Shown in pieces: positions 1 to 45,670 of a stretch of 64,000 bases of DNA (the stretch's first letter is position 1; each line of letters opens with the position of its first letter). Made by a program: the position numbers and the translations under genes. Origin of the DNA: Candidatus Omnitrophota bacterium (GTDB lineage: Bacteria > Omnitrophota > Gorgyraeia > Gorgyraeales > Gorgyraeaceae); contig JAPLMD010000042.1 of assembly GCA_026387235.1 (NCBI GenBank), positions 3,185 through 67,184 on the forward strand, given 5' to 3'. Below the pieces are notes generated by a model, which made no database searches, was not told the origin of the DNA, and saw only the letters and a program-made list of their open reading frames with translations.

Positions 1-1320
1 TGCCGCAATAAAAATCCTTTTGCCCTGGCATCCTTTGCGATCCTTGTCCAGCACATATCCCTCTGGCCCATATGAAATACGCCCATTGCCTCATTCAGAA
101 AACTGTGTATTTGTCTTTCCAGTATAGGCTCGAAATCCTTCTGCATTTTTCTTCCGGCTACTTCTACTATTATTCCCAGGGGCGCTGCTCCGCCGTCTTC
201 AATTTTATCGAGTTCCGGGCCTATAACTTCAATTTTCCCATCCTCTATCTTATCGGGTGGCACCATTTTTACATATTCAAACGCATCTGAGTATTTGCCT
301 CCAAATTGCGCAAACATCTGCTCCCGCCTTACTCTTTCGCCTTCAAAAGCCGGCGAATACGGCACAGGTATCGGTATTTCTGTAATTTTTATTTTCAAAC
401 CTCTTACTTCTATTGAACGCTGCGCTATCTTTTTATGGTCCAATTCTTTTACTACGTGCTCATAAGTACATATGCCGCTCGGCTTTATTTCAGGTATATC
501 TGTGTCGGCTATAATAGGAAAGCCCATATTGATTGCGCCTGCGCCTGTCGCATATTTAATATCATCCAGCTTTCCCAAGACCATGCCAAAGGCAAATACC
601 CTGTTCTGGCAGTATTTAAGACATTTGAGAGCCTCTCCTTTTTTATGGCCTCCGAATGTAAGTGCGCCCCTTATCGCCCAATTCAAAGGATATATGGCGC
701 TCAAGGTGTCTCTTCCGTAAGGTATTATATAAGTGTCCCAGCCCATTTCTACTTTTTCTTCAAGAAGCTGATCGATTATGCTTCTCCCGTTAACATTACT
801 GCCTACAAATGTCATTATGCTGCGCTTTTGCAATTCACGCACAATATAAACTGCTGTTTTATTGTCAGGCGCAGCCCCTAATATTGCGGCAAAGCCTGGT
901 ATCCTCCCATCTACAAGCTGAATCCCTAATGTGCGGAGAATTGTATCTGAAAAGAAGCCGTTACAATCTTTTTGCGGTTCCTGGCCATATAAATACCTTA
1001 GCGCCATTATTATTTCTTCGCACAATAGCGTTGCTACGCCTGAATCCAGGGTATCTCCCAAATAAGGCAGCCATATTTTTTCAGAAGGGTCGTCACGCAG
1101 AAGTGTTTTTGCAAATAATAAAACTCTTTTGGCATCACTTAGTTTTTTCACCTCTTCGCCCAGCAAAGCATAAGCCATTGGAAAATAAAAAGCAGTATCC
1201 GGGAATTTAATCTCGCAGGATTCGGTTTTTTCCTTGATCGAGTTTTCCAGGAATTCCTCAGCCTGCCTGTATATCTCTCTGGCGCCCCTTATAGCGCATG
1301 TTGCAATTATCTTTGACATG
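1..1320 (-). CDS. acsB: Acetyl-CoA synthase (CODH/ACS complex, AcsB/CdhC-type subunit). N-terminal ~440 aa; the 3' end runs off the window start.
   Basis: Not in the ORF track because it is truncated at the edge. Manual reverse-strand translation from the ATG at 1320 (preceded by GGAGGA) gives MSKIIATCAIRGAREIYRQAEEFLENSIKEKTESCEIKFPDTAFYFPMAYALLGEEVKKLSDA... then ...DGKIEVIGPELDKIEDGGAAPLGIIVEVAGRKMQKDFEPILERQIHSFLNEAMGVFHMGQRDMCWTRIAKDA. This matches conserved AcsB blocks (PDTAYYLPV..GEEVKKLGDL; DGKIEVIGPDID; RRIHDF.NYGEG.WH.GQR). The frame is open to position 1. Confidence 0.85.
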
Positions 1321-1323
1321 CTT

Positions 1324-1392
1324 CCTCCAAATTTACGAAGTAAATTTGATCCCGAGTCCGCCCTTTTTATTGCTACTGTGCGGCGAGGGACC
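1324..1392 (-). repeat. Structured leader/intergenic repeat, copy A. AT hairpin AAATTTACGAAGTAAATTT plus GC hairpin GATCCCGAG..GCGGCGAGGGACC. It fills the FNOR-acsB gap.
   Basis: Shares motif and arrangement with copies at 12456, 23606, 37009, 37092 and 44668. It sits immediately 5' of the acsB SD and ATG on the coding (minus) strand. Confidence 0.7.
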
Positions 1393-1394
1393 TA

Positions 1395-2684
1395 TTATAG
1401 CGTCATTATCGTCTCTTTAAACTCCGGTTCTTTAAACCCTCTTTTAGATTTTTTTATAAGAGGGGCGATTTTACCATAATCAAAATAGTCTTCTAACATT
1501 ATGTCTTTAATGCTGGTGACATCCGCCTTATTCTTAATCAAAGTGCCGATTATGCCTATATTTTCAATTGAATTTACAAATATAACACCCACAATAATAC
1601 CATCTTTTAAAACTATTTTTTTGTAAATATTTTTACCTGCATCTTTTTTAACAATTTCTTTATACCTATCGCTTTTCGGCTTTGTTATACCAACTGAAAT
1701 AACCGGCAATCCGAAAAACTCTATTGAATTCATTGCCAGAGACCCTTCGTATGTTTCATTTTCCCCGGTCATATTTAAACCGGCAATTCTTCCCTGCTCA
1801 CACGCAGCTGGCCAGATTGCATTTATAGAACTTTCTTCCAAGGCAATATCATTTGTTTCTGACACATCGCCTGCGGTAAATATATCTTCAACGCCTGTTC
1901 TTAAGCGCTCGTTGGCCAAAATACCCCAGCTTGTTTTTATACCGGCATCCTTTGCTATTTCAACATTCGGCGAAACACCTTTACCTATAATTACAAGCTC
2001 GCAATCGTGTTTCGAGCCATTATCAAGCGCAACCCCATCTACTGACTTAGCCCCTGTGATTTCTTTTGCAGCTACGCCTGTAAATATTTTTATGCCTCTT
2101 TCCTCTATGCGTTTCTGCATAATGCCAGCGGCATCCTTATCAATTATCTGGGAAAGTATAGAGCCTGATTTTACAAAAACGCTCACATTCTTGCCTCTGT
2201 TTTTCAATGCATACGCAGCGCGCAGGCCTATTAAGCCGCCGCCCAAAACAGCCACGCTTTTTACCTTATCCAGCATAGACTGGATCTCTGTAGTGTGTTC
2301 AATAGTTCTGAGAGGAAAAACACCTTTTTTATCTATGCCGGGTATATCTTCTAATTTTGGCGAAGCGCCTGTTGCAATAAGCAGCTTATCAAACTTTATC
2401 TTTTCTTTATTGCCGATGGCTATTTCTTTTTTCTTTATATTTATTTTTTCAGCCTTGATGCCAAGCAATGCTTCAACTTTATTATCTTTAAAAAAACTGT
2501 CCGGCTTGTACCAGATCTTTTTCCCATCAATAGTGCCTGCCAAAAGATAAGAAATAAGGCATCTTGAATAAAGCGGATTTTTCTCATCCGAGATAATAAT
2601 TATCTTTGATGTCTTATCTTTTGTCCTTATGGCTTCTATTGCGTTTATTCCAGCCGCACTGGAACCGATTATTACGTACTGCAT
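1395..2684 (-). CDS. FAD-dependent pyridine nucleotide-disulfide oxidoreductase (the FAD/NAD(P) oxidoreductase that accompanies CooS-CooF).
   Basis: N-terminal GxGxxG (VIIGSSAAG) and a second Rossmann motif (VLGGGLIGLRAAYAL); typical length of 429 aa. It lies directly downstream of cooS-cooF, as in clostridial cooS1-cooF-FNOR clusters. Confidence 0.75.
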   Translation of the reverse strand: MQYVIIGSSAAGINAIEAIRTKDKTSKIIIISDEKNPLYSRCLISYLLAGTIDGKKIWYKPDSFFKDNKVEALLGIKAEKINIKKKEIAIGNKEKIKFDKLLIATGASPKLEDIPGIDKKGVFPLRTIEHTTEIQSMLDKVKSVAVLGGGLIGLRAAYALKNRGKNVSVFVKSGSILSQIIDKDAAGIMQKRIEERGIKIFTGVAAKEITGAKSVDGVALDNGSKHDCELVIIGKGVSPNVEIAKDAGIKTSWGILANERLRTGVEDIFTAGDVSETNDIALEESSINAIWPAACEQGRIAGLNMTGENETYEGSLAMNSIEFFGLPVISVGITKPKSDRYKEIVKKDAGKNIYKKIVLKDGIIVGVIFVNSIENIGIIGTLIKNKADVTSIKDIMLEDYFDYGKIAPLIKKSKRGFKEPEFKETIMTL

Positions 2685-3136
2685 ATCTTTGTAAACTCCT
2701 TAAGAGTTCCTAAAAACAGCGACTTTGTCTGGCATGCTTCAACGCAAGCAGGTTTATCCCTGTCAGGACAAAGATCACATTTCAAGACTATCTTTTCCTC
2801 TCTTAATCTCGTCACTGCTCCAAAAGGACAAGTCATTATGCACATCCAGCACCCAACGCATCTATCTTTATCATGCTGCGTAAGAGCTGTTTTCTTATCC
2901 TTGTACATTGCGCCTGACATGCAGGCTGTTACGCACGCCGCATTTTCGCAATGATGACAGCCTGTAGATATAGAGACGCTCTCTTCTACGAATTCTGCTT
3001 TGCGTCTTTTGACAGGAAGAGGGCTTTCTGCTATAGATTTATTCAATTCTCTGGACTTAGAATGCTCTATAGCGCATGCAATCTCACAACTCCCGCATCC
3101 GAGGCATTTTTTAATATTGCAGTATATTTTTTTCAT
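2672..3136 (-). CDS. cooF: CooF-like 4Fe-4S ferredoxin (iron-sulfur electron-transfer subunit).
   Basis: Four CxxCxxCxxxCP-type cysteine clusters (CLGCGSCEIAC, CHHCENAACVTAC, CVGCWMCIMTCP, CDLCPDRDKPACVEAC). 154 aa. Adjacent to cooS. Confidence 0.8.
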   Translation of the reverse strand: MKKIYCNIKKCLGCGSCEIACAIEHSKSRELNKSIAESPLPVKRRKAEFVEESVSISTGCHHCENAACVTACMSGAMYKDKKTALTQHDKDRCVGCWMCIMTCPFGAVTRLREEKIVLKCDLCPDRDKPACVEACQTKSLFLGTLKEFTKICST

Positions 3137-5037
3137 ACTTTAGCGCATATCAGGGGTTTCAGTTTAAGCGCTTCTCGCTTCTTATCAATATGCTCTACCA
3201 TTAAATGAGCTGCTTTTATCGGATCGCCTTCAAATGCCCATTTCCCGCCGTATAGCGGCTCGATTTCATTACAGATATAATTTGTGACATTCTTACTTCC
3301 CATCACTCTTAACGGAGTGCCAATTACCACAAATATTCCGGATGCTACAAAATACCAGCCTATTGCAATTGCTTTTTCAGACATCCATTCAGGGGCAGCT
3401 CCTGCAACAGGAAGCTCATCTATGCTATTTCCAATGCCGCCTTCTTTTACCATCTCGCAGCAGGCAGTCAGTATCCTTGTATTGTCCACGCAAGAGCCTG
3501 TGTGTAAAACCGGCGGTATCCCAACTGTTTCGCATATCTCCTTTAGGCCGTCTCCGGCAAACTTGAAAGCAGCTTCCGGAGTTAAAAGGCCTGCTTTTGC
3601 GCATGCGCTCCCGGAACACCCTGTTTGCACAACCAGCACATCATTTTTTATAAGCTCCTTTACCATTTCTGCGTGGCAGAGGCCTGATTCATTTTTCGGA
3701 TTATCGCAGCCTATCACACCGGCTACGCCTCTTATCCTTCCGCTTATAATCGCGTCATTTAAAGGCCTGTATGACGGTCTGAAACTTCCGCCCAGGTTAT
3801 AAAAAATATTTTCCATTGTAAAACCAGCCACAAGCGTCATTTTTTCTTTTGGTATATTGACCTTGGAGCGATTTCTATTTTTATAATTTTCAATAGCGAT
3901 TCTTAAAATCTTTTTTGCTGTTTCCAATGCATCTTTTTCATGAAATTCTATGTGCTCCATGCCAACAAATTTTGCCTTGGGAGAAGTAGAAATAAGTTTT
4001 GTATGAAATGACTTTGCTACTTCCGGCAGGCTCGGCATTATACATTGTATATCAACAATCATTGCTTCTACAGCCCCTGTAATTATAGCCAGCTCCTGCT
4101 GCAGAAAGCTTCCAGCCATAGGCACGCCATGCCGCATAAGCACTTCTGCTGCAGTGCAGCATATGCCTGAAAGGTTTATGCCTTTTGCCCCGTATTTTTT
4201 TGCAAGTTCTACAAGCTCTTTGTCCTGGCTGGCTGTAACCATGATATCGGAAAGAATCGGCTCGTGGCCGTGCAAAAGAATATTGACCTCGTCTTCTTTC
4301 AATACGCCTAAATTCACCTCAGCTCGTATGGGTTCCGGGGAGCCGAATAAAATATCGCTCAGGTCAGTTGCTATCATTGAACCGCCCCATCCATCTACAA
4401 GCGAAGCCCTTATTGCTGATTCTAAAACATGCTTATACTCATTATCGCATCCTATGTGAGTCCTGGACATTGCCTGAACAACCTCTATATCAATACCCCT
4501 TGGATTGACATTTGTTTTTTTCCAGTTATCCCGCTGTTTCTTAGGGGCTCTCTTTGTCAGCGTTAATTCTCCTTCTTGCTGGCCGTATTCTTTTAAAATA
4601 ACTTCCCCAAGCTCTTCCGCAATTTTTAAATCACCTTTACCGTCTATTTTTATGCTGAATTCAACAGCTAGTTTCTTTAATTTCGCGGGGTCTTTTATAG
4701 AATAGTCCTTTACATGGCCTCTTCCCAGTTCAAGAAGCGTCCATGCAAGATCTCTGCCATGATCTGAATGACACGCAGCTCCTGCTGCAGCGTTACGGAC
4801 TAAATTTCTTGAGCTTATAGTATCTGCGTCTGCTCCGCACGCCCCCTTCTGAGCTCCTTCTCCGAACGGGTCTATCCTGCATGGGCCGAGGTTACAGATC
4901 TTGCAACACACCCCGAGCGTCCCGAATCCGCAATGAGGCTCCTGCTCCATAAAGCGGTCCCATACAGTAGAAATATTATTTTGCGCAGCTATCTCTAATA
5001 ATTTATCGTTAATAGGATTACCTGTTGGTTTTGCCAT
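3133..5037 (-). CDS. cooS: Anaerobic carbon-monoxide dehydrogenase catalytic subunit (Ni-CODH).
   Basis: 634 aa. The N-terminal cysteine-rich block CGFGTLGVCCKICNLGPCRI and the overall CooS/AcsA length and sequence character are diagnostic. Confidence 0.92.
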   Translation of the reverse strand: MAKPTGNPINDKLLEIAAQNNISTVWDRFMEQEPHCGFGTLGVCCKICNLGPCRIDPFGEGAQKGACGADADTISSRNLVRNAAAGAACHSDHGRDLAWTLLELGRGHVKDYSIKDPAKLKKLAVEFSIKIDGKGDLKIAEELGEVILKEYGQQEGELTLTKRAPKKQRDNWKKTNVNPRGIDIEVVQAMSRTHIGCDNEYKHVLESAIRASLVDGWGGSMIATDLSDILFGSPEPIRAEVNLGVLKEDEVNILLHGHEPILSDIMVTASQDKELVELAKKYGAKGINLSGICCTAAEVLMRHGVPMAGSFLQQELAIITGAVEAMIVDIQCIMPSLPEVAKSFHTKLISTSPKAKFVGMEHIEFHEKDALETAKKILRIAIENYKNRNRSKVNIPKEKMTLVAGFTMENIFYNLGGSFRPSYRPLNDAIISGRIRGVAGVIGCDNPKNESGLCHAEMVKELIKNDVLVVQTGCSGSACAKAGLLTPEAAFKFAGDGLKEICETVGIPPVLHTGSCVDNTRILTACCEMVKEGGIGNSIDELPVAGAAPEWMSEKAIAIGWYFVASGIFVVIGTPLRVMGSKNVTNYICNEIEPLYGGKWAFEGDPIKAAHLMVEHIDKKREALKLKPLICAKV

Positions 5038-5758
5038 CTAATGCCTCCGATAAGTTTTTTATAAATTCAGAATCCTCCGGCAACACGCCTCTTGAGTTTA
5101 AAAGCGATTCATCAAGGCCTATGTACCCCTGAACCCGGATACCTTCTAAATTTTTCTTTATAAAATCTTTGTCTTCTTTTGACCTGATTTTGTTTCCTAT
5201 AGCTGAAATCTCTTTTATGCCAAGGCCTTCGGCAAGCTGTTTTATTTTTTTGGCTGTATCAATTGATGTGCTATTCGGTTCTATAACTATTAAAAATTTT
5301 TCAACGGACTCGGCAGTGCCTCTCCCAAGATGCTCTATGCCTGCCTCCATATCAACTACTATAACCTCGTCCCTGTTTAAAAATATATGGCTCAATAACG
5401 CTTTTAAAAATGCGCTCTCAGGACAAACGCAGCCTGAGCCGCCTCTTTTGACAGTGCCCATCTCCATCAAAATCACATTGCCGCGCTTAGAAGAAAACTT
5501 GTCAGGTATATCATCTACCCTTGGGTTTAATTTAAAAAAGGCGCCTACCTCACCTGTCCTCTCCAGAATCAGTTTCTTGAGTTCAGAGATCGGCGCAGGC
5601 CTCTCTGAACTTGAAAAACCAAGGGTAGCCGCAAGGTTCGCATCAGGATCAGCATCTATTGCAATTACCTTCTTGCCTTGATTTTTAAAGAGCAGGACAA
5701 GCCCAGCTGCCACAGAAGTCTTCCCTACTCCGCCTTTTCCGCTTACTGCTATTTTCAT
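5018..5758 (-). CDS. cooC: CODH nickel-insertion accessory ATPase (MinD/ParA family; CooC/AcsF).
   Basis: Deviant Walker A at the N-terminus (MKIAVSGKGGVGKTS). 246 aa. Overlaps the cooS start by 20 nt. Confidence 0.85.
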   Translation of the reverse strand: MKIAVSGKGGVGKTSVAAGLVLLFKNQGKKVIAIDADPDANLAATLGFSSSERPAPISELKKLILERTGEVGAFFKLNPRVDDIPDKFSSKRGNVILMEMGTVKRGGSGCVCPESAFLKALLSHIFLNRDEVIVVDMEAGIEHLGRGTAESVEKFLIVIEPNSTSIDTAKKIKQLAEGLGIKEISAIGNKIRSKEDKDFIKKNLEGIRVQGYIGLDESLLNSRGVLPEDSEFIKNLSEALDGKTNR

Positions 5759-6621
5759 AATCCTGCAGCATTCAAAACTAAAGGAACTTTTTTATCCCAT
5801 CCTATGGGCATTATATGAACGCCCTGGCATATAGGTTTAAGTTCTTTAATAAGCCTTGCTGCTATCTCTATTGATTTTACGCTTTTATCCTTAGCCTGCT
5901 CCATTTCCTGTATCAAATCTTCAGGCACAAACACCCCTGCTACATTTTTATTCATATACCTTGCCATGCCAGCTGATTTTAAAAGCACTATGCCAGCTAT
6001 AATGGTCGTTTTTAAATGAGAGGCTGCTTTCAGAAATTTCTCAAAAAGATGCATCTCATAGATAGCCTGGGTCTGAAAAAACTGAGCGCCTGCTTCTATT
6101 TTTTTCTCCATCTTAATAATCTCAGGCTCTATGGGGTCTGCGCCAGGATTCACCACTGCTCCTACGCAAAACTTAGGGCTTCCTTTCAATTCTTTGCCCG
6201 CCATATCCTTCCCTGATTGCAAGCCCCTGATAGCCTCAAGCAATTGCATTGAATCCAGATCAAAAACAGGTTTTGCGCCAGGATGGTCTCCCAAGGCCGG
6301 ATGGTCTCCAGTAAGAGCTAGCACGTTCTGTATCCCAAAAACAGCTGCGGATAAAAGATCTGACTGGAGAGCCAATCTGTTTCTGTCCCTGCAGGTAATC
6401 TGAAAAACAGGTTCAAGCCCGCGTTCCAATAAGAGTTTGCATATTGCCAGAGACCCTGTCCGCATGACAGAGCTTTGAAGGTCTGTCACATTTATCGCAT
6501 CCACCCTGCCTTTTACAAGCTCAGCATCCTTTAAAATCTCTTCGACATCAATGCCTTTCGGCGGAGCTATCTCCGACGTAATAATGAACTTACCTGATTG
6601 TATTTTTTCGCAAAGCGCCAT
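5755..6621 (-). CDS. metF: 5,10-methylenetetrahydrofolate reductase.
   Basis: 288 aa with MetF family blocks (FSFEFFPPK-like region ITSEIAPPKG; LALTGDHP; GAVVNPGADP). Located inside the Wood-Ljungdahl cluster. Confidence 0.85.
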   Translation of the reverse strand: MALCEKIQSGKFIITSEIAPPKGIDVEEILKDAELVKGRVDAINVTDLQSSVMRTGSLAICKLLLERGLEPVFQITCRDRNRLALQSDLLSAAVFGIQNVLALTGDHPALGDHPGAKPVFDLDSMQLLEAIRGLQSGKDMAGKELKGSPKFCVGAVVNPGADPIEPEIIKMEKKIEAGAQFFQTQAIYEMHLFEKFLKAASHLKTTIIAGIVLLKSAGMARYMNKNVAGVFVPEDLIQEMEQAKDKSVKSIEIAARLIKELKPICQGVHIMPIGWDKKVPLVLNAAGL

Positions 6622-6634
6622 AAGCTTTTTCCCG

Positions 6635-7501
6635 TTATTTTGTTTGTTGTTGTTTAAATGCCTCGACTACGTTCCGCATTAAAATCGTTACAGTCAAAGG
6701 CCCTACGCCGCCTGGAACAGGCGTTATGTACGAGGCCTTCTCAAATGCCTTATCGAATTCCACATCGCCCACAATCTTGCCTTCAACGCGGTTGATCCCG
6801 ACGTCTATTACAATTGCGCCTTCTTTTATCCAATCGCCTTTTACAAGCCCGGCCTTTCCCACAGCCACTATTAAAATCTCTGCTTTTTTCACAAATTCAG
6901 GAAGAGTTCCTCTTTGGCCTGTGGCTATGTGGCACACCGTGGTAGTTACGAATTTATTTAATAATAACAGCGCTAGAGGCTTTCCTACGATTTCGCTGTG
7001 GCCTACCACAACTGCCTCTTTGCCGTATAGCTCAAGCGAATCTATGGAATTCAATAATTCCATGCAGGCAGCCGCAGTGCACGGCAAAATCTTTGCTTTC
7101 CCAAAAACAATCTCTCCCATGTTCTCAGGATGGACTGCCTCTATGTCTTTTAAAGAAGAAATGTATCTGGATATAAGCTTTGCGTCTATATGCTGCGGCA
7201 AAGGCATCTGGACTATGATCCCATGCGTTGATTTATCTTTGTTCAGAGAATCGATTATTTCTATAAACTCATCCTGGGTTATGCCGGCGTCTATCTTTTT
7301 CAACTCGTACGTTATGCCGAGATCCCTTGCTGTCTTCTCCTGGGACTTGATATAAATTTCCGAGGCAGGATTTTCTCCTACCTGGACGCTCACAAGCTTA
7401 GGGCCGGCCCCGTATTTATTCTTCAGCGATTCGATTTCCAGTTTTATATTTTCTTTTATTTTTAAAGCAACGCTTTTACCTTCCAACAACTTAGCAGGCA
7501 T
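6635..7501 (-). CDS. folD: Bifunctional methylene-THF dehydrogenase / methenyl-THF cyclohydrolase.
   Basis: 288 aa. FolD hallmarks present: GKxxVVVGRSxIVGKPLALLL-like block (GKEAVVVGHSEIVGKPLALLLL) and PVPGGVGPLTV. Confidence 0.9.
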   Translation of the reverse strand: MPAKLLEGKSVALKIKENIKLEIESLKNKYGAGPKLVSVQVGENPASEIYIKSQEKTARDLGITYELKKIDAGITQDEFIEIIDSLNKDKSTHGIIVQMPLPQHIDAKLISRYISSLKDIEAVHPENMGEIVFGKAKILPCTAAACMELLNSIDSLELYGKEAVVVGHSEIVGKPLALLLLNKFVTTTVCHIATGQRGTLPEFVKKAEILIVAVGKAGLVKGDWIKEGAIVIDVGINRVEGKIVGDVEFDKAFEKASYITPVPGGVGPLTVTILMRNVVEAFKQQQTK

Positions 7502-7503
7502 GC

Positions 7504-8103
7504 CTATACCATCCTTTCGCCGGTTTTAGAAATAGTTTTTTTATACAGATGAGATATGTCTTTTTTAAGGCCGCGGAGGACGATCCTTTCTTTTTCTACA
7601 AAAGAGGCGTCCTTTATGCCTTTCAGGTTTATCTCAGAATTGAACACACCTGATTCAAAACCTGCTTTTAGAAGCTCTGCCCCGCACCCGACATCTGTTA
7701 TTAAATTCACGTTTGATTTCTCTGCCAGATTTAACGCGATTGCCATTCCGGCTTTCGCCAATCCGCACATTTTTAAAGAGATACGATACCCTTGTTTTAG
7801 AGCATTCTCAATTATTTTTTCATCTTTTGTTTTGAACGCCGCGCATATAGAAGAATATATCTTCACATCCTCGTCTACTAAAAGCAGAAATTCCTCTCTT
7901 ATCTTTCTAAGTGATGTCAGATAATCGGCCACGGCTTCTTCTGTGTCCTTGTATTTTTTATTTCCTATAGTAAAATTGCACACCATTTCTAACAGGGCTG
8001 AGCCCATGGCTCCTGCCAAGCTAGCTGCGCTGCCGCCGCCTGGCGTGGGCTGCCTCGCAGCAAGGTCATCTATATATTTTTTTAAAGGTTTATTGACATA
8101 CAT
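7504..8103 (-). CDS. fchA: Methenyl-THF cyclohydrolase / formimino-THF cyclodeaminase family protein (FchA-like).
   Basis: 199 aa. The cyclodeaminase-domain signature PTPGGGSAASLAGAMGSALLEMV. Sits between fhs and folD, as in acetogen Wood-Ljungdahl clusters. Confidence 0.75.
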   Translation of the reverse strand: MYVNKPLKKYIDDLAARQPTPGGGSAASLAGAMGSALLEMVCNFTIGNKKYKDTEEAVADYLTSLRKIREEFLLLVDEDVKIYSSICAAFKTKDEKIIENALKQGYRISLKMCGLAKAGMAIALNLAEKSNVNLITDVGCGAELLKAGFESGVFNSEINLKGIKDASFVEKERIVLRGLKKDISHLYKKTISKTGERMV

Positions 8104-9812
8104 TAAAATAGCCCTAACACCTTTCCGTCCTTATCAATATCCACTTTAGTCCCTGCGGGCACGGACGGTAAGCCCGGCATCGTGCGCATCTCGCCGCACA
8201 ATGGGTATAAAAATCCTGCGCCTGCTGAAATCCTTACATCTCTTATAGGCAAAGTAAAATCCCTGGGCCTCGCCTTAAGCTCAGGGTCGTGCGAAAGCGA
8301 TAAATGAGTCTTTGCCATACATATGGGTAATTTATCATAGCCCAATTTTGTATAGCAAGATATCTTTCTTTCAGCTTCCGGCGAATAACTTACATCTTTT
8401 GCGCCGTAAATCTTTTTTGCTATCAGCTCTATCTTTTCTTTAATCGGCATATCCAGAGGATATAGAAACTTGAAGTCTGATTTTTTCTCGCACATCTTTA
8501 TTACAGCTTTAGCTAAAGCTACGCCGCCTTCGCCGCCTTTTTCCCATACCTCGCTTAAAACAGCATCCTCTGCCCCTGCTTTTACAGCTATTTCTTCTAT
8601 TGCTGCAATTTCTCTATCCGTATCATATAAAAACCTATTTATCGCAACTACTACTGGCACGCCGAATAATTTTATATTCTCAATATGTTTTTCAAGGTTA
8701 CTAGCGCCTTTTTTAACAGCTTCTACATCTTCTCTCTTTAAAGCTTCTGCATCTATCTTCTTGCCCGGCGCTGCCTTAAACGCTCCTCCGTGCATCTTAA
8801 GGGCTCTGACACTGCATACTATCACCACAGCATCAGGTGGCTTAAGGCCCGGTATCCGGCATTTTATATCCATAAATTTTTCCGCGCCGCAGTCTGCGCC
8901 AAAACCGCTCTCAGTCACCACGTAATCTGATAGTTTTAATGCTATTATATCAGCCAGTATTGAATTGTTGCCGTGCGCGATATTTGCGAAAGGCCCGGCG
9001 TGCATGATGCACGGGGTGTTTTCCGTCGTCTGAACAAGGTTAGGCTTAATAGCGTCTTTTAAAAGGACTGTCATAGCGCCTGCGCATTTCAGGTCCTCCG
9101 CTGTGACTGGCAAGCCAGCATAAGTAAAAGCCGCTATAATTTTTCCTATGCGGCTCCTCAAATCAAAAAGATCTTTTGAAAGCGCGAGTATTGCCATCAC
9201 TTCACTTGCAACTGTTATATCAAAACCTGTATCTCTTGGAATTCCATTTTCCTCTCCGCCCAAGCCAGTTTTTATCTGCCGCAAAGCCCTGTCGCTTATA
9301 TCCACTACTCTGCGCGTGATAATAGTATCGGGATTTATATTCAGCTTATTGCCTTTGGCAATGCTATTATCAATGAATGCCGCCAGGAGATTATTTGCTG
9401 CGCCCACAGCGTGTATGTCGCCTGTAAAATGAAGGTTTATATCTTCCATTGGCAAAACCTGGGAATAACCACCTCCAGCAGCTCCGCCTTTTATTCCGAA
9501 TACAGGCCCCATCGAAGGCTGGCGCAATGTGGTAATTACCTTTTTCCCGAGCTTATGCAGTCCTAGACTCAAACCAATAGTGGTAACTGTTTTCCCTTCT
9601 CCCAAAGGCGTCGGCGTAATGGCTGTTACGTCTATATATTTTCCAAAAGGTTTATCTTTAAGGCGGCCAAGTATAGAAAGGGATATTTTGGCTTTATACC
9701 TTCCGTATAATTCAAGCTCATCCTCTTTTATACCCATCTCTTTTGCAATCTCAGTAATAGGCTTAAGTTCTGCAGCCTGGGCTATTTCTAGGTCACTTGG
9801 AATACTCTTCAT
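8103..9812 (-). CDS. fhs: Formate--tetrahydrofolate ligase.
   Basis: SDLEIAQAA..., TPTPLGEGKTVTTIGL and PSMGPVFGIKGGAAGGGYSQV are diagnostic. The start is called at MKSIPSD (ATG at 9812 with GGAGG 5 nt upstream) rather than the track's 9824. Confidence 0.92.
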   Translation of the reverse strand: MKSIPSDLEIAQAAELKPITEIAKEMGIKEDELELYGRYKAKISLSILGRLKDKPFGKYIDVTAITPTPLGEGKTVTTIGLSLGLHKLGKKVITTLRQPSMGPVFGIKGGAAGGGYSQVLPMEDINLHFTGDIHAVGAANNLLAAFIDNSIAKGNKLNINPDTIITRRVVDISDRALRQIKTGLGGEENGIPRDTGFDITVASEVMAILALSKDLFDLRSRIGKIIAAFTYAGLPVTAEDLKCAGAMTVLLKDAIKPNLVQTTENTPCIMHAGPFANIAHGNNSILADIIALKLSDYVVTESGFGADCGAEKFMDIKCRIPGLKPPDAVVIVCSVRALKMHGGAFKAAPGKKIDAEALKREDVEAVKKGASNLEKHIENIKLFGVPVVVAINRFLYDTDREIAAIEEIAVKAGAEDAVLSEVWEKGGEGGVALAKAVIKMCEKKSDFKFLYPLDMPIKEKIELIAKKIYGAKDVSYSPEAERKISCYTKLGYDKLPICMAKTHLSLSHDPELKARPRDFTLPIRDVRISAGAGFLYPLCGEMRTMPGLPSVPAGTKVDIDKDGKVLGLF

Positions 9813-9814
9813 TT

Positions 9815-10195
9815 TTACCTCCATCTACTATCCAGATCAAACGCATTCTTTATCAGCCTTACTTGCGGCCGGAGACTATCAACGCCCTCTATGCAAACCA
9901 CATCAAACCTGCAGCTTTTATCTTCCAGCTTAAATTTCTTTATATACGCTAGGGCTGCTTTTGAAATCTGCAGCTGTTTCTTTTTTAATATCGTCTCTTC
10001 AGGCAAACCGAACGCGGGCGAGTTTTTAGCCCTGACTTCCACAAAACAAGTACAGCCTTTATAATCCGCTATTATATCTATTTCTCCCAGCTTTGTCCTG
10101 TAATTTCTTCCTATTATTTTATAGCCTTCTCTTCGCAAATAAGAAACAGCCAGCTCCTCTCCGCTCTTTCCAGAACTAATCCTTGCAAATGTCAT
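9815..10195 (-). CDS. yraN: YraN/UPF0102 family endonuclease.
   Basis: MTFARISSGKSGEELAVSYLRREGYKIIGRNYRTKLGEIDIIA... is a typical YraN. The start is taken at MTF (ATG at 10195); the track ORF extends 16 codons upstream into a hairpin. Confidence 0.75.
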   Translation of the reverse strand: MTFARISSGKSGEELAVSYLRREGYKIIGRNYRTKLGEIDIIADYKGCTCFVEVRAKNSPAFGLPEETILKKKQLQISKAALAYIKKFKLEDKSCRFDVVCIEGVDSLRPQVRLIKNAFDLDSRWR

Positions 10196-10210: not shown

Positions 10211-10250
10211 TTGACTTATGGAGTGAATGAAATGAACGAGCATAAGTCAA
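10211..10250. repeat. Inverted repeat TTGACTTATG-N20-CATAAGTCAA in the rnhB-yraN gap. It is followed by GC motifs related to the leader-repeat family (TAATCCCGGGC ... GTTGCGAGGGAT; 10259-10300), a second inverted repeat GCGAGGGAT-N18-ATCCCTCGC (10292-10327), and CTCGGGAT (10355-10362).
   Basis: Perfect 10-bp arms. The neighbouring TAATCCCGGGCAACCC...GCGAGGGAT closely resembles TAATCCCGAGCAGCCC...GTCGCGAGGGGC of copy E. I read this as a degenerate seventh copy of the element. Confidence 0.4.
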
Positions 10251-10375
10251 TGTGCGAATTAATCCCGGGCAACCCTATTTTTCATCATGTTGCGAGGGAT
10301 AAAACTTTATATGATAATCCCTCGCTGCATATAATCAAGAATCAAGGCAGCTCGGGATAAGTTCGGACATATAGC

Positions 10376-11113
10376 TTACGTCGTCCTTCGGATTCCGCAA
10401 GCTATGTCCTCACTTATAGGCGCGAAACTTTTCCTGTGTATCAAGCAAGGCCCATGTTGCTTGATGGCCTCCAAATGAAATCTCGTGCCATATCCCTTGT
10501 GTTTAAAAAAACCATAAAGGGGATATTTTTTATCATACCGGTCCATGATCGCATCGCGCATTACCTTTGCGACTATTGACGCAGCTGCTATGGAAAAACT
10601 CTTGGAATCGCCTTTTATAATTGGAATTGTTTTATAGGGTAGAAACCCGCCAAATAGGCCATCTACTAGAACGCAGATATCTTTTCGGACATCTTTTTCT
10701 TTTTTATTAGCCAGCCGGCAGAATTTGAATACCAGTTTCTTAACAGCCTGCTTCATTGCTGCAAGCGTTGCCATGTGTATATTTTCTCTGTCTATATATT
10801 TATTATCTTTAATGCCTACCCCAAAAATAGCTTTCGCTGATATTTCTTTGAATGCCTTTTCTCTCTCCGGCGGCCGGAGTTTCTTAGAATCATCTATGTT
10901 TTCCTTGTATTCCGGCACCTTAAATATTCTCAAAGGAGAGCGGTTTAAAATCACAGCCCCCGCCACCACAGGACCTGCCAGAGGACCCCTGCCTGCTTCA
11001 TCGACTCCTATTATTATAGAAAAGCCTTTAAGAAACGCTTTCCGCTCCCAAGACAACATCTGCCGGGTTTTTAGCGGCTTCTCTTTCTTCTTCGACCGTT
11101 GTATGTTTGCCAA
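10376..11113 (-). CDS. rnhB: Ribonuclease HII.
   Basis: [23 protein letters not shown] and the ...[28 protein letters not shown]-terminal block. The start may be the internal MLSWERK (11059). Either start overlaps the rplS 3' end. Confidence 0.85.
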
Positions 11114-12445: not shown

Positions 12446-12455
12446 CTTTCCTCCC

Positions 12456-12520
12456 AAATTTTGCGAAGCAAAATTTGATCCCGAGCCGCCATTATACCCG
12501 CGTATACGCGGCGAGGGACC
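12456..12520 (-). repeat. Structured leader repeat, copy B (AAATTTTGCGAAGCAAAATTT + GATCCCGAG..GCGGCGAGGGACC). It fills the murA-rpsP gap.
   Basis: Same architecture as copy A, with compensatory palindrome variants TGC/GCA. Confidence 0.7.
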
Positions 12521-23591: not shown

Positions 23592-23605
23592 ATTCATATC
23601 CTCCC

Positions 23606-23713
23606 AAATTTTGTGAAACAAAATTTAATCCCGCCTCGTGCCGAAACGAGTGCTAGCTAGGCACTCGGCGCCGAGGCAAGCTGCCCTGACTCTTACACCT
23701 AGCGACGAGGGGC
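23606..23713 (-). repeat. Structured leader repeat, copy C (long form: AAATTTTGTGAAACAAAATTT + AATCCCG..extended GC hairpins..GCGACGAGGGGC).
   Basis: The AT palindrome is identical to copies D1 and E. The GC-hairpin module carries an extra CCTCGTGCCGAAACGAGTGCTAGCTAGGCACTCGGCGCCGAGG insert. Confidence 0.65.
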
Positions 23714-23821
23714 TTTTTAATAATATTACTATTATCCTATGCAAAATCAAGAAAATTATAATTTACATTTTTTCAATATCCTAACCTATTACAATGATTA
23801 ATGTTACAAGCGATGCTAAAT

Positions 23822-28863: not shown

Positions 28864-29059
28864 CTTATATTTTCCCAATTTTTTATCTCTCCTCTCTCTT
28901 GAAAAATCGGTTTTATATGGTATAATTATTATAGCCGATAAGGGCAAACCCTGAGAAATCAGGGGGCGCAAAGCCTACGGGCCTAAGTTATTATGACAAG
29001 CCGTGACCAAAAGGTTAGTTAGGCAGTCAGTAATAATATGGCGGCCGGGTTGCCGAGCG

Positions 29060-36473: not shown

Positions 36474-36615
36474 ATTCTAAATATAAAAAAAGAAGCCGAT
36501 AAAGATTAGTCGCTTAGCGCGATCCGGCTTGGCCTTATATTAAGGCATCTCTTTGTAACTTTATCGGCTTCATTATTGAGTATATCACATTTTTTAAGCA
36601 AATTCAAGCCGTCGT

Positions 36616-36996
36616 CTAACTTACTATTTTATAGACTACGTCGTGTTCCCTAACCTTTGATTTTACCTTTAACCCTATCTCCATACCCTTTTCCGCATTT
36701 TGTATCGGCGCGTGGTCAAGCTGGATAGATTGCACCTTTTCCTTAAAATCAGACGTATGGCCTTTTATGACAATGTTATCTCCCACGGAAAGAGTGCTCT
36801 TCGTAAGTTTTACGACAGCTGCATCTACTTTTGGAAAATAATGGGTTATTATACCTGCTTCTTCGAGAGATGCGCCGCTGGGTATAGATGAAGCCTTTTT
36901 TAGTGCCTTTGCCAGGGGCTTCTTCTTGGCAACGGTTTTCTTCTTTGCCTTTTTTACAGGCTTTCTAATTACCTTCTTGGTTTTCTTTTTCTTCAT
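36616..36996 (-). CDS. Lysine-rich (histone H1-like tail) protein with a C-terminal small beta-barrel domain (translation-factor domain II-like). Hypothetical.
   Basis: The N-terminal 35 aa are ~50% Lys (MKKKKTKKVIRKPVKKAKKKTVAKKKPLAKALKK). The C-terminal ~85 aa follow the G..G..V..G..V pattern of EF-Tu domain-2-like barrels. Preceded by two tandem leader repeats. Confidence 0.4.
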   Translation of the reverse strand: MKKKKTKKVIRKPVKKAKKKTVAKKKPLAKALKKASSIPSGASLEEAGIITHYFPKVDAAVVKLTKSTLSVGDNIVIKGHTSDFKEKVQSIQLDHAPIQNAEKGMEIGLKVKSKVREHDVVYKIVS

Positions 36997-37008
36997 GCTT
37001 CACCTCCC

Positions 37009-37077
37009 AAAATTTTGTGAAACAAAATTTTGATCCCGAGTGACCCTAATTATTTTCCATCGGGTCGCGAGGGACCC
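37009..37077 (-). repeat. Structured leader repeat, copy D1.
   Basis: AAAATTTTGTGAAACAAAATTTT + GATCCCGAG..GGGTCGCGAGGGACCC, immediately 5' of the SD (GGAGG at 37003-37007) and ATG 36996. Confidence 0.7.
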
Positions 37078-37087
37078 TTGTCTTTCG

Positions 37088-38104
37088 CTACTTGTTTTGT
37101 GCAACAAAATTTGATCCCGAGGCCGCCTCGCCATCAAAGGTGGCGGGTGAGACGAGGGGCGATTTTTTATATAAAAACTCTCCGAACATTTTGCTGTGTT
37201 TTGTCCATGACGAATCAAGGTCATTGTATGTCTTTACAAAATGCCGGAATCCGTTTATCTTTGCGTCCAGGTTATCTATGTGATGCAGGATGATCGCCTC
37301 GAAGCACATGGGCCTTTTAGGCGAACCCCATTCATGTTCTCCGTGATGGCTGAGTATTATATGCAGAATAAGATTTTTCAATTCTTCCGGAAAATCCTGG
37401 ATCTTATCAATTGCCGCGCTTACGATATTTACGCCCAGGACTATGTGGCCTATCAGCCTGCCTCTATCCGTATAATAAAAACTTCTTTTATACGCAAGTT
37501 CTTCTATCTTCCCTATGTCGTGGAGAGCTGTGCCGCATAAAAGAAGGTCGATATTTATATTCTCGTATTTTAAAGATATCGTTCTTGCAAGTTGAACGCA
37601 CGCGAGCGTATGCTCAACAAGCCCGCCTATGTACGGATGATGAAAATCACTGGCAGCAGGCGCTGTTTTGAATTTTTCAGATATGCCTTTATCGGAGAAC
37701 ACGTTATGTATTAAGACCTTAAGATAGGGATTTTTGATTGATTCCATTTCAGATAAAAAATCTTTAAACATCTGATTTCTGTTTTTATCTGAAACCGGTA
37801 CATACAGCGAAAGATCTACGGATTCCTCGTTTATCTTTTCTATGGATTCCAGTTTTAATTGCGGATAGTTTTTGTAGAATTCTACCTTGCCCCTTATTTT
37901 TATAAAATCATCTACGATAAAAGAATCAAATAAAGACTTTAAGGCGTCCCATTTCCTGCAATCCACCATGCCTGTCCTGTCGGAAAGTTCGAGCGATATG
38001 TATGGATTACCGTTCTTGGTGATGTCGAAGGATTTTTCTCTTACAAGATAAACCGACTCTACTATCTCTCCTTCTTTCAAATCGCTTATAAACCTGTGAG
38101 CCAT
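37088..38104 (-). CDS. yhaM: 3'-5' exoribonuclease YhaM-like (OB-fold + HD domain).
   Basis: N-terminal OB fold (DLKEGEIVESVYLVREK...GNPYISLELSDRTG). HD domain (HPYIGGLVEHTL...ALHDIGK...HHGEHEWGSP). The C-terminal ~24 aa are encoded by repeat copy D2. Confidence 0.75.
   Translation of the reverse strand: MAHRFISDLKEGEIVESVYLVREKSFDITKNGNPYISLELSDRTGMVDCRKWDALKSLFDSFIVDDFIKIRGKVEFYKNYPQLKLESIEKINEESVDLSLYVPVSDKNRNQMFKDFLSEMESIKNPYLKVLIHNVFSDKGISEKFKTAPAASDFHHPYIGGLVEHTLACVQLARTISLKYENINIDLLLCGTALHDIGKIEELAYKRSFYYTDRGRLIGHIVLGVNIVSAAIDKIQDFPEELKNLILHIILSHHGEHEWGSPKRPMCFEAIILHHIDNLDAKINGFRHFVKTYNDLDSSWTKHSKMFGEFLYKKSPLVSPATFDGEAASGSNFVAQNK
37092..37161 (-). repeat. Structured leader repeat, copy D2 (tandem to D1). 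It overlaps the last ~24 codons and the stop of yhaM.
   Basis: TTGTTTTGTGCAACAAAATTT + GATCCCGAG..GACGAGGGGCG. The yhaM reading frame runs through it (…SPLVSPATFDGEAASGSNFVAQNK*). Confidence 0.65.
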
Positions 38105-38156
38105 GTCTGAATTATATACCTAACATAATTTGTTTTCAACAAAAAATATAATTAAC

Positions 38157-40118: not shown

Positions 40119-40316
40119 AAATTTCGGTAATCCAGCCACCTTAATCCCGCGCTCGCAGAATCTTAGGCCTGTGACTTTGCGCCCCGCTCTTTCGAGCGGT
40201 TTGCCTTTGTCGTAATACTATTCAGTTGTCTCTAGTTATAAGTATGCCTCATTTTTTGGAAAAAACAAGGGCTGGCGCGAAGCGAACGCAGTGAGCTTCG
40301 CGCTAAAACATATTTA

Positions 40317-41657: not shown

Positions 41658-41711
41658 CCCTCTGTCCACCTGCCAGGTGAGCCATCTGGCTCACCTGGCA
41701 GGTGGACAGAG
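41658..41711. repeat. REP-type palindrome (CCTCTGTCCACCTGCCAGGTGAGCCA..TGGCTCACCTGGCAGGTGGACAGAGG), the 3'-flanking copy of the RAYT.
   Basis: ~26-bp arms; near-identical copies at 42370 and 45614. Confidence 0.8.
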
Positions 41712-41718
41712 GCTTACG

Positions 41719-42351
41719 TTATTCTAGTATCATATCCTTTATTTTTGCCAATTCTCTTTGATAAGAAATTCTGTCTTCTACAAATTTTTTATACTCCTCT
41801 GGCTTTATATCTAATACATTGTCATATTCACAAATGCCCTCTTTATTACCGGAAATATATTCCCGATAAGAGGACCATTTCCAGTCTTCCGGGTTATTAA
41901 CTATATACGCTGTAGCAGGATTTAAATGAATGTATCTTGTCAAATGGAGCAACTGCGCATCGCTTTCTACCAGCACTTTTTTAAAACTACTCTCCCATAA
42001 TGGCCCTTTGCGATTATGCTTTATATTAAAATATCGCGAATAACTATTAAGCACGTTGCTCATAAAAACTGAAATTCCTTTGTCCTTTAATTGCTTAAGC
42101 ACTAAATGTATATGGGTCGGCATAATGCAATAACAAATAATCTGCACAAGTCTTTTAACGTCAAGTTGTTTAACCTGCATATTCCTTTCTTTGAACCTTG
42201 AAAACCGGACAAAAGGCCTTTCGATTCTATAATATTCAATGACTTCGCGCATCCTTGAATATTCAAAATCATTATTAAATATTACATATTCTGCGATACT
42301 TTTACTATAAACATGATAGATTTCGTCTGTAACTATGCGCTGACTATCCAT
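41719..42351 (-). CDS. tnpA: IS200/IS605-family Y1 (HuH) transposase of the REP-associated type (RAYT/TnpA-REP).
   Basis: HuH motif MPTHIHLV and catalytic Tyr region (TRYIHLNP). 210 aa from MDSQRIV (ATG 42351, SD AGGAGGGG). Flanked on both sides by the same long palindrome. The track ORF's N-terminal extension is just the palindrome translated. Confidence 0.8.
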   Translation of the reverse strand: MDSQRIVTDEIYHVYSKSIAEYVIFNNDFEYSRMREVIEYYRIERPFVRFSRFKERNMQVKQLDVKRLVQIICYCIMPTHIHLVLKQLKDKGISVFMSNVLNSYSRYFNIKHNRKGPLWESSFKKVLVESDAQLLHLTRYIHLNPATAYIVNNPEDWKWSSYREYISGNKEGICEYDNVLDIKPEEYKKFVEDRISYQRELAKIKDMILE

Positions 42352-42369: not shown

Positions 42370-42415
42370 TATACCTTTGGTCCACCTGCCAGGTGAGCCA
42401 GCTGGCTCACCTGGC
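42370..42415. repeat. REP-type palindrome (perfect 46-bp palindrome GGTCCACCTGCCAGGTGAGCCAGCTGGCTCACCTGGCAGGTGGACC), 5'-flanking the RAYT.
   Basis: Perfect dyad symmetry; same sequence family as 41658 and 45614. Confidence 0.8.
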
Positions 42416-42593
42416 AGGTGGACCAGGGTTCTCATTATATAAGACACATTTGGAGGGGATTTTCTTTCAAAAAAATTTAGATTTTTTCAGCAGACTAGAA
42501 GATATGTAAAAGGCGGTGAGTTTGTTTGCAAATAAAAATCCCCTGGAGGATTACTCCCCCAGGGGATTTAAACTGCTGAACTAATGTTTTAGG

Positions 42594-44655: not shown

Positions 44656-44667
44656 ATATCCTCCTTA

Positions 44668-44728
44668 AATTTTGTGAAACAAAATTTAATCCCGAGCAGC
44701 CCTTATTCTTCACTGAGTCGCGAGGGGC
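44668..44728 (-). repeat. Structured leader repeat, copy E (AAATTTTGTGAAACAAAATTT + AATCCCGAG..GTCGCGAGGGGC).
   Basis: Abuts the SD (GGAGG at 44660-44664) and ATG 44655 of the lipoprotein gene. It fills most of the PHP-lipoprotein intergenic gap. Confidence 0.7.
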
Positions 44729-44765
44729 TTTTTTATAATAAGGTTACTACATCTATCCTTTAATG

Positions 44766-45413: not shown

Positions 45414-45526
45414 GTTTCTCTCCTTAGCTAAGCATTGTGGTTCGACGCGCTCGCTTCGCTCGCTTGCTCACCACCATCCTGAGCAAGCGAAAATTTTATA
45501 AAATAAAATTTTCGCGCGTCGAAGGA
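45414..45526 (-). repeat. Highly structured GC/AT palindromic element between tRNA-Arg and the PHP gene. Outer stem TTCGACGCGC/GCGCGTCGAA encloses hairpins GAAAATTTTAT-ttt-ATAAAATTTTC and GCTTGCTCA-N9-TGAGCAAGC, plus a GAGCGAAGCGAGC tract.
   Basis: Inverted repeats read directly. It shares TCGCTTCGCTCGCT with the rplS-leader palindrome (11436-11501). Confidence 0.5.
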
Positions 45527-45603
45527 TGGCGTCCCAGGGGCGATTCGAACGCCCGACCCCAGGTTTAGGAAACCTGTGCTCTATCCATCTGAGCTACTGG
45601 GAC
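45527..45603 (-). tRNA. tRNA-Arg (anticodon CCU), with encoded CCA.
   Basis: Manual cloverleaf: acceptor GTCCCAG/CTGGGAC (7 bp), D-arm GCTC-AGATGGATA-GAGC, anticodon arm CAGGT-TTCCTAA-ACCTG (CCU at 34-36), variable loop GGGTC, T-arm GGGCG-TTCGAAT-CGCCC, discriminator G, CCA. Confidence 0.85.
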
Positions 45604-45613
45604 CTTTGACCTT

Positions 45614-45661
45614 GGTCCACCTGCCAGGTGAGCCAGATGATGGCTCACCTGGCAGGTGGAC
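45614..45661. repeat. REP-type palindrome (third copy of the RAYT-associated family), immediately upstream of tRNA-Arg.
   Basis: GGTCCACCTGCCAGGTGAGCCA-gatga-TGGCTCACCTGGCAGGTGGAC. Confidence 0.8.
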
Positions 45662-45670
45662 AGGGATTTA

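Follow-up and report, generated by a model that had tools for sequence, protein, structure and literature searches.

Several families of short, hairpin-forming repeats are known from the spaces between bacterial genes. The REP, BIME and REPIN repeats of proteobacteria, which are mobilised by RAYT proteins, are G+C-rich imperfect palindromes that occur about once per several kb, in the very short inter- and intracistronic spaces of transcribed operons. The Correia elements of Neisseria (CREE/NEMIS) and other miniature inverted-repeat transposable elements (MITEs), such as RUP, BOX and ERIC, are multi-copy, non-autonomous and intergenic, while the mycobacterial MIRU are oriented intercistronic repeats whose frames fuse with the flanking stop and start codons. 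Palindromic elements derived from IS200/IS605 move by a peel-and-paste route, and the Rickettsia palindromic elements (RPEs) are translated as part of proteins. Here we compare with these systems a pair of repeats found at the 3' end of a yhaM-like gene in 64,000 nt of contig JAPLMD010000042.1 from a Candidatus Omnitrophota bacterium (this whole stretch is referred to as the window). The two copies, a distal one (D2) and a proximal one (D1), belong to a dispersed, structured, hairpin-forming repeat of ~70 nt that is abundant in this Omnitrophota lineage. We propose that they represent two separate insertions of this repeat, which lands directly 5' of a G-rich motif (the GGAGG of a Shine-Dalgarno sequence (SD), or the end of a tRNA gene), and we give this reading a probability of about 0.72. 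The architecture of the element is RGUCCC-UC-G[P2 hairpin]C-UC-GGGAUY, followed by an A/U hairpin (P3) and a G-rich flank. In the first helix (P1) RGUCCC pairs with GGGAUY, the 2x2 pyrimidine internal loop UC/UC is invariant, P2 is a variable G+C-rich hairpin that defines subtypes, and P3 is a 9-bp A/U hairpin, AAAUUUUGY-UUC-RCAAAAUUU, lying directly after P1.

Around yhaM all genes of the window lie on the minus strand, and coordinates refer to it as the sense strand. The yhaM product has OB and HD domains and belongs to the YhaM 3'-5' exoribonuclease family (Pfam HD and tRNA_anti-codon), matching the NCBIfam model PRK13480 with E=1e-60, under its curated cutoff. Wherever the junction is readable, the next gene 3' of yhaM encodes a Lys-rich protein. 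Related loci used for comparison are prefixed L; the metagenome loci are among the matches listed of a scan with the element's own consensus pattern. The initial annotation had seen two head-to-tail copies upstream of the Lys-rich gene and had suggested that a mobile element entered the 3' end of yhaM; the two copies are real, and the suggestion is supported by the relatives, whose yhaM/Lys-rich junctions have zero, one or two copies, or remnants. The site is empty in L002, L005, L008, L010, L012 and the outgroup L015, which share an identical 19-nt junction, AAAAAATCG|GAGGTGAAGCATG, and it is also empty, with other junction sequences, in the more distant L013, L014, L016 and L023. One copy is present in L004, L009, L079, L116, L125, L149 and L150, remnants with internal deletions in L003, L006 and L007, and two copies in the window, L001 (=L090) and L011. 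With the exception of L079, the full-length copies examined start after the same AAAAAATCG and end with ...AAAUUUG(G) directly 5' of the pre-existing GAGG, the core of the Lys-rich SD that the empty sites already contain. Filled and empty junctions thus differ by the element alone, with an ambiguity of at most 1 nt (G). At this one position after AAAAAATCG there are at least six unrelated P2 types, each of which also occurs at unrelated loci. The 3' end of the window yhaM is 94% identical to that of L002 (empty), 92% to L116 (one copy) and 90% to L003 (remnant), and in a single-gene neighbour-joining tree L004, with one copy, groups with the empty L005 and L008. The ancestral state is the empty site. 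The patchy copy states among close relatives imply that insertions recurred at a single hot spot, that copies were excised exactly, or both, and mobility is supported in each case.

The two copies in the window are related, their alignment having 47 identities in 74 columns (64%) and a score of 51, which is 6 standard deviations above 2000 shuffles (best shuffle, 32). On the minus strand D2 reads CGCCCCUCG-[UCUCACCCGCCACCUUUGAUGGCGAGGCGGC]-CUCGGGAUCAAA-UUUUGUUGCACAAAA and is degenerate: P1 is mismatched (CGCCCC), a change from G to A mispairs P2, P3 is unpaired at its base, and an SD is lacking. D1 is intact and reads GGGUCCCUCG-[CGACCCGAUGGAAAAUAAUUAGGGUCA]-CUCGGGAUCAAA-AUUUUGUUUCACAAAAUUUU with GGGAGG and the ATG directly after it; it keeps the order GGUCCC-UC-G, P2, C-UC-GGGAUC, P3 and has a predicted RNA fold of -27.2 kcal/mol (z=-2.8). 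The tandem duplication assumed by the initial annotation is not supported by the P2 hairpins, which are 45% identical between D1 and D2, no better than between unrelated copies, and which each have better matches elsewhere. Among the matches listed, the nearest P2 to that of D1 (89%) is found in L053, from another metagenome and upstream of a different gene. The P2 of D2 is 94% identical to L001/L090 and 90% to L116, all at orthologous sites, and 87% to a copy at a non-orthologous site (L119:10514). Furthermore, L116 has a lone complete D2-type copy with P3, SD and ATG intact (58 bits), L003 retains a D2 remnant, which shares the unusual UGC loop, and lacks D1, and L079 has a single D1-like copy with the same longer AAAAUUUUGUUUCACAAAAUUUU P3 and a P2 that is 74% identical. 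In L001 and L011 the second copies are of other subtypes and are placed between the P3 of the first copy and the SD. The stretch AGCGAAAGACAAGG found 5' of D1 recurs 5' of a copy at an unrelated tandem in L121.

The order that we infer for the two events is as follows. In the ancestral state yhaM would have overlapped the start of the Lys-rich gene (...FLYKK-SEVKHEEK..., AAAAAATCG|GAGGTGAAGCATG). A D2-type copy would then have entered between TCG and GAGG, so that the yhaM frame ran on to the first chance stop. A D1-type copy with a short 5' extension would later have entered the same target, by then lying between the P3 of D2 and the SD. Its arrival would have pushed D2 off the SD, after which D2 would have decayed (16 bits compared with 58 for the L116 copy), while the Lys-rich gene would have kept its own SD, now directly 3' of the P3 of D1. 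Where yhaM had overlapped the Lys-rich gene by 30 nt, the insertions leave the yhaM stop separated from the ATG by 91 nt. Translational coupling through the ancestral overlap, if it existed, would have been lost on insertion. As the target survives each insertion, recurrent tandem pairs would be expected, and about 13 true tandems are found elsewhere in the family.

The consequence for YhaM is a new C-terminal tail. Codons 315-338 of yhaM (SPLVSPATFDGEAASGSNFVAQNK, 37091-37162), 24 residues, are read from D2, as initially annotated. The stop codon is not part of the repeat as then delimited, since the UAG (37088-37090) sits 2 nt past that D2 end, in a stretch that replaces the SD part of a complete copy (covariance-model positions 66-70). 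YhaM is conserved up to FLYK(K) in 90 of the 90 homologues listed. These are 65-91% identical, keep ...SKMFGEFLYK(K) and then diverge, with lengths of 318-339 aa, and even YhaMs that are 80-91% identical share ...SKMFGEFLYKK and diverge beyond it. The genomes with an empty site do not share the tail but read SEVKHEEKE..., the displaced tail being unconserved read-through across the SD and start of the next gene. Other homologues have different tails or translate other copies of the element, for instance SPLAAEQ followed by the stop in L004; in L149 and L150 the frame stays open across the full element as far as an ATGA overlap. The proposal that the native C-terminus was replaced is thus right in that one tail was substituted for another, but overstated as regards the loss of a functional C-terminus. 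No sign of selection on the tail peptide was found among these homologues. Judged from the alignments, the 24-residue tail appears to be an unselected by-product of insertion, with the YhaM core untouched and no functional C-terminus lost.

The abundance of the repeat was evident from simple patterns. The window has 7 occurrences of the bipartite motif CCCTCG-N8-38-CTCGG where 0.34 would be expected, a number reached by none of 100 shuffles, and the P3 pattern has 11 matches against 1.5 expected. A covariance model built from 14 equal-length copies, with which the window was searched with filters off, recovered 8 credible copies in the 64-kb window and 139 in 744 kb of related Omnitrophota DNA. 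In the model-fitted alignment 93.9% of the pair cells are paired, compared with 80.8% in shuffles. All 20 of the 20 pairs have double-sided changes, with none of 500 shuffles as good, and controls with a slid register gave 25-58% paired. A strand-specific RNA structure gets no support from the G.U pairs, as these number 31 compared with 43 A.C mismatches when the fixed G2.U43 is excepted. Since G.U pairs are not enriched above A.C, the data do not separate RNA from single-stranded DNA as the selected structure. A known RNA family was also rejected, as Rfam 15 gave no match at gathering thresholds over the whole window and only noise at E<=10 for 36500-37700. We found no description of such an element in Omnitrophota in full-text literature searches.

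Of the 139 copies, 104 are directly followed by an SD and a start codon. Others lie against tRNA genes, 9 of them meeting the 5' end of the gene in sense orientation and 11 its 3' end in antisense orientation, and 15 are in other contexts. On the sense strand a conserved GGAGG flanks the element on its 3' side, equivalent to CCTCC 5' of it on the other strand. The genes downstream of the window copies are unrelated, encoding S16, YraN, a putative lipoprotein, a small hydrophobic protein, the Lys-rich protein and a large unannotated product. Many copies begin a few bases past the stop codon of the upstream gene. A consensus scan of the region gave a single strong sigma-70-like promoter match, the one upstream of yhaM (Table 1), and none in the interval separating yhaM from the Lys-rich gene. 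A promoter of D2's own was considered and rejected, since the TATAAA just 5' of D2 consists of LYK codons, the scan gave no match there and most copies elsewhere come straight after an upstream stop codon. D2 and D1 are thus probably intercistronic, and yhaM would be co-transcribed with the Lys-rich gene. Because the downstream genes are unrelated, many copies start after upstream stop codons and there is no intergenic promoter match, the element is an intercistronic, 5'-proximal repeat and not a dedicated regulon leader.

Table 1. Features of the yhaM locus and further repeat copies in the window (positions in the window; sense strand of each feature given)
Feature	Position	Strand	Details
yhaM-like open reading frame (ORF)	37088-38104	-	338 aa; ORF list and domain searches
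YhaM conserved core	37163-38104	-	ends ...SKMFGEFLYKK; ORF list, Pfam, NCBIfam, homologue alignment
Non-homologous YhaM tail and UAG stop	37088-37162	-	translation; tails of close homologues differ
Sigma-70-like promoter match TTGAAA-17-TATAAT	38111-38139	-	upstream of yhaM; consensus scan only
D2, distal degenerate copy	37092-37160	-	covariance model 16.3 bits, E=0.02
D2 CCCTCG	37153-37158	-	
D2 P2 hairpin	37122-37152	-	
D2 CTCGGGATCAAA	37110-37121	-	
D2 P3 (UUUUGUUGCACAAAA)	37095-37109	-	
Spacer (C)AAGUAGCGAAAGACAA between D2 and D1	37077-37091	-	15-17 nt; contains yhaM stop
D1, proximal intact copy	37009-37076	-	covariance model 71 bits, E=1e-16
D1 CCCTCG	37068-37073	-	
D1 P2 hairpin	37041-37067	-	CGACCC...GGGUCA
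D1 CTCGGGATCAAA	37029-37040	-	
D1 P3 AAAAUUUUGUUUCACAAAAUUUU	37009-37031	-	
SD GGGAGG of Lys-rich gene	37003-37008	-	ATG at 36996
Lys-rich protein gene	36616-36996	-	126 aa; EF-Tu domain-2-like C-terminal half
Copy	12451-12520	-	92.8 bits; abuts SD of rpsP (S16)
Copy	1324-1392	-	65 bits; abuts SD of large gene, first 438 aa in window
Copy	44662-44729	-	62.6 bits; abuts SD of putative lipoprotein gene (...LLAGC N-terminal signal-like sequence only)
Copy with long P2 insertion	23601-23714	-	49 bits; abuts SD of small hydrophobic (putative membrane) protein gene
Inverted doublet, sense copy	10244-10301	-	before yraN; doublet spans 10244-10358
Inverted doublet, 5' module only	10317-10358	+	
RAYT-like HUH/Y1 transposase gene	41719-42351	-	HIH, YIHLNP motifs

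A local tandem duplication of one leader copy followed by divergence would account for the head-to-tail arrangement of D1 and D2, 81-82 nt apart, and for the conserved modules that they have in common, and it would agree with the frequency of tandem pairs in the repeat family. It would not be expected to leave P2 hairpins that are far less like each other than like copies elsewhere (87-94%), nor would it explain the relatives with a D2-type copy alone (L116) or a single D1-like copy (L079), the second copies of other subtypes in L001 and L011, or the recurrence at the L121 tandem of the spacer found 5' of D1. We therefore consider a duplication very unlikely. It is hardly credible, in our view, that one or more ancestral leaders were inherited vertically and repeatedly deleted without any mobility. 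Internally deleted remnants do exist (L003, L006 and L007), and L004 and L009 share a similar P2 though their sister genomes are empty. However, the 19-nt empty junction of the in-group recurs unchanged in the outgroup L015, and the element is missing from more distant relatives too. Each of the repeated deletions would have had to be nucleotide-exact, and six unrelated P2 types at one site are not derivable from one ancestor.

The remaining alternative is that the pair is a functional tandem cis-regulatory RNA controlling translation of the Lys-rich gene, the overlap with yhaM being incidental. The covariation of the helices, the sense orientation with P3 abutting the SD in 104 of the 139 copies and the invariant pyrimidine loop all agree with a function of this kind, and a pairing of CCUC to the SD through its GAGG is conceivable, as in alternative minimum free energy folds of L004 and L009. 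The element may act at the RNA level, for instance by presenting the SD in a leader, by being processed or by binding a protein. Such a role is disfavoured as the primary explanation here, since the genes served are heterogeneous, with tRNAs in both orientations among them, the element is absent at the Lys-rich gene from the closest relatives, and D2 has decayed. Nor do the copies have the coherent regulated gene set and orthologous conservation of a riboswitch or a match to an Rfam family, and the lack of G.U enrichment over A.C is atypical of a functional RNA helix. We regard this alternative as decidedly unlikely.

A number of observations weigh against two separate insertions of a mobile repeat. 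The copy density in the metagenome loci is biased upwards, as these loci were ascertained by the consensus of the element. The order and the independence of the events rest on P2 subtypes and on the single-gene neighbour-joining tree, and gene conversion between dispersed copies could swap P2 types without any new insertion. The P2 of D2 is 94% identical between the window and L001 while the adjacent yhaM DNA is only 82% identical, which vertical descent does not simply account for and which suggests that this P2 type is constrained or that one master copy gave rise to separate insertions. In L011 a scaffold gap (run of N) lies inside the repeat pair at ~2140-2200, leaving the copy number at two or three; short-read assemblies evidently fail at repeats of this sort. 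No target-site duplication is seen when filled yhaM junctions are compared with empty ones, and an autonomous, tnpA-bearing parent element was not found in the window or the fetched loci. The RAYT-like gene of the window was considered as the cognate enzyme and rejected, being flanked, within these 64 kb, by a different palindrome, and a RAYT-like homologue was detected by tblastn in 1 of 148 loci (L085), and there without the repeat at its flanks. Finally, the strong sense bias and the placement of copies exactly against the SD could be the outcome of selection on a function of the RNA and not of the choice of target.

As to how the repeat might move, its two ends, (R)GUCCCUCG at the 5' side and CAAAAUUUG(G) at the 3' side, are not reverse-complementary, and the inverted repeats found are internal (P2 and P3) and not terminal. 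A hidden target duplication was also sought as a correlation between the 5' and 3' dinucleotides (model positions 1-2 and 66-67 in 133 copies), and none was seen. The hairpins, the lack of terminal inverted repeats and target duplication, the oriented insertion and the identical empty sites together recall HUH mechanisms. We tentatively suggest that the repeat may be mobilised in trans by a single-strand-DNA HUH/Y1 transposase of the RAYT or IS200/IS605 kind, an assignment that rests on these likenesses. The empty sites are identical to the nucleotide, as seamless excision would predict, and the G.U pairs, not being enriched over A.C mismatches, give no pointer to the active strand. The RAYT-like gene of the window matches Pfam Y1_Tnp (E=3e-7) and NCBIfam REP_Tyr_transpos (E=7e-17, below cutoff). 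On both sides (~42376-42427 and ~41660-41711) it is flanked by a 46-nt perfect palindrome, GTCCACCTGCCAGGTGAGCCAG.TGGCTCACCTGGCAGGTGGAC, a third copy of which (45614-45662) lies directly upstream of a tRNA gene (45530-45603). This palindrome was absent from the 148 related loci and is a second repeat family, distinct from the leader-like repeat.

The repeat family includes tandem pairs, inverted doublets, arrays and copies with nested inserts, and most copies are single and in sense orientation. Many of the apparent pairs listed are single copies split by a nested insert. That the proximal copy of a tandem is always the more intact was considered as a rule and found to be a tendency, holding in roughly 9 of the 13 true tandems. 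Inverted doublets occur at 10244-10358 in the window, where the covariance-model matches score 24.7 and 36.2 bits, and in L072. The former is part of the region 10244-10420 between rnhB and yraN, in which an extra long hairpin (~10360-10420) overlaps the 3' end of rnhB, so that the RNase HII tail may also be repeat-encoded. In L072 (429-590) two inverted copies fill a tRNA-Ile/tRNA-Ala spacer, probably that of an rRNA operon, each abutting a tRNA end. A role as antisense terminator beside tRNA genes was considered and rejected, as most such copies are without an antisense U-tract (5' flanks read, uncounted). The long P2 insertion of the copy at 23601-23714 is G+C-rich, and its 5' CCUCGU pairs with ACGAGG to form a variant closing helix that is also present in the distal copy of L011. 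Many copies have a conserved insert of ~50 nt (GUCCCGCCCUUUUGGCGGG...AAAAGGGCGGGGC) inside the P3 loop (L038, L040, L051, L060, L071, L075, L079:10646-10764, L098, L106, L112, L119:10511-10639 and others), and this insert represents a second element nested in the first or else a longer form of the family. L001 (1570-1652), L111, L129, L148 and the window at ~45440-45530 contain a related repeat, of 'CCUUCG-type', whose arms are GCUUUGCUCGC-like; it forms short tandem arrays in L111 and provides the second copy at the L001 yhaM junction.

Elsewhere in the window, 51 of the 55 ORFs of a greedy non-overlapping set are on the minus strand. Two c-di-GMP-I-GGC riboswitch aptamers score above the Rfam gathering threshold, at 40122-40214 (-) with 69.1 bits and at 28934-29058 (+) with 61.6 bits. 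Positions 1-9824 (-) carry a Wood-Ljungdahl-type cluster with a CO dehydrogenase (Prismane family), MTHFR, FolD, an FTCD_C-domain protein and formate-tetrahydrofolate ligase, and the large gene at 1-1319 beside it is one that we take to resemble acetyl-CoA synthase.

The locus provides a view of a small selfish or semi-domesticated repeat at work in a streamlined, uncultivated phylum, where it reshapes the ends of genes and the regions between cistrons. The repeat breaks a gene overlap that may have coupled translation, appends arbitrary peptides to a ribonuclease and creates most of the length variation among annotated YhaM orthologues, and such C-terminal extensions should not be taken as domains in annotation. 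Its value lies in an allelic series, filled, empty and doubly filled at a single nucleotide position, together with the apparent targeting of SDs and tRNA ends. With the yhaM alleles both the mechanism of insertion and any effect on translation are directly testable. A more speculative idea, which we consider rather unlikely, is that the repeat is a so far undescribed kind of site-specific mobile element in Omnitrophota, homing to the 5' edge of SDs and to tRNA-gene termini with seamless empty sites, and doubling as a structured 5' leader for the downstream cistron, that is, as a mobile translation-initiation module. If this were true, arrays such as D2-D1 would record one insertion after another, like strata.

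The systems introduced above are the closest analogues of the repeat. With the REP, BIME and REPIN group it shares the short imperfect G+C-rich palindrome, the high copy number (8 in 64 kb), the extragenic location in short spaces of transcribed operons, the lack of terminal inverted repeats and target duplications, the occasional inverted doublets and a RAYT-like gene in the same window. It differs from them in having two dissimilar hairpins (the G+C-rich P1-P2 and the A/U-rich P3) with fixed single-stranded motifs, in lying 5' of genes at SDs or tRNA ends and not after stop codons, and in being mostly single and in one orientation, without the predominance of inverted doublets that marks REPINs; moreover, the RAYT-like gene found here carries another palindrome at its flanks. 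Palindromic elements derived from IS200/IS605 likewise have subterminal hairpins, no terminal inverted repeats or target duplications, empty sites of the kind that seamless excision predicts, and oriented insertion beside a short conserved sequence. In the Omnitrophota repeat, however, the two hairpins are unlike each other, and the conserved flank is 3' on the sense strand (GGAGG) and not 5' of the left end.

Like Correia elements and other MITEs, the repeat is multi-copy, non-autonomous, intergenic, polymorphic for presence and absence at orthologous sites, apparently co-transcribed with its neighbours and able to alter the 3' end of an ORF. Correia elements, however, have terminal inverted repeats and a TA target duplication, neither of which was found in this element. 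With MIRU it has in common the orientation, the intercistronic position in operons, the possible tandems and the fusion of frames, the last seen in the single-copy alleles of L149 and L150, where yhaM runs through the whole element to the ATGA overlap. The stop/start coupling of MIRU does not occur in the window, where the yhaM stop is 91 nt before the ATG, and MIRU arrays consist of variable numbers of near-identical units without conserved hairpins, while D1 and D2 are different subtypes and 64% identical. RPEs resemble it as palindromic repeats that are translated as part of proteins, but they insert in frame within ORFs and keep the downstream protein, whereas here only an unconserved C-terminal tail has been replaced. 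The element thus lacks the defining features of a MITE, does not form a MIRU-type array and is best described as a small, structured, dispersed repeat.

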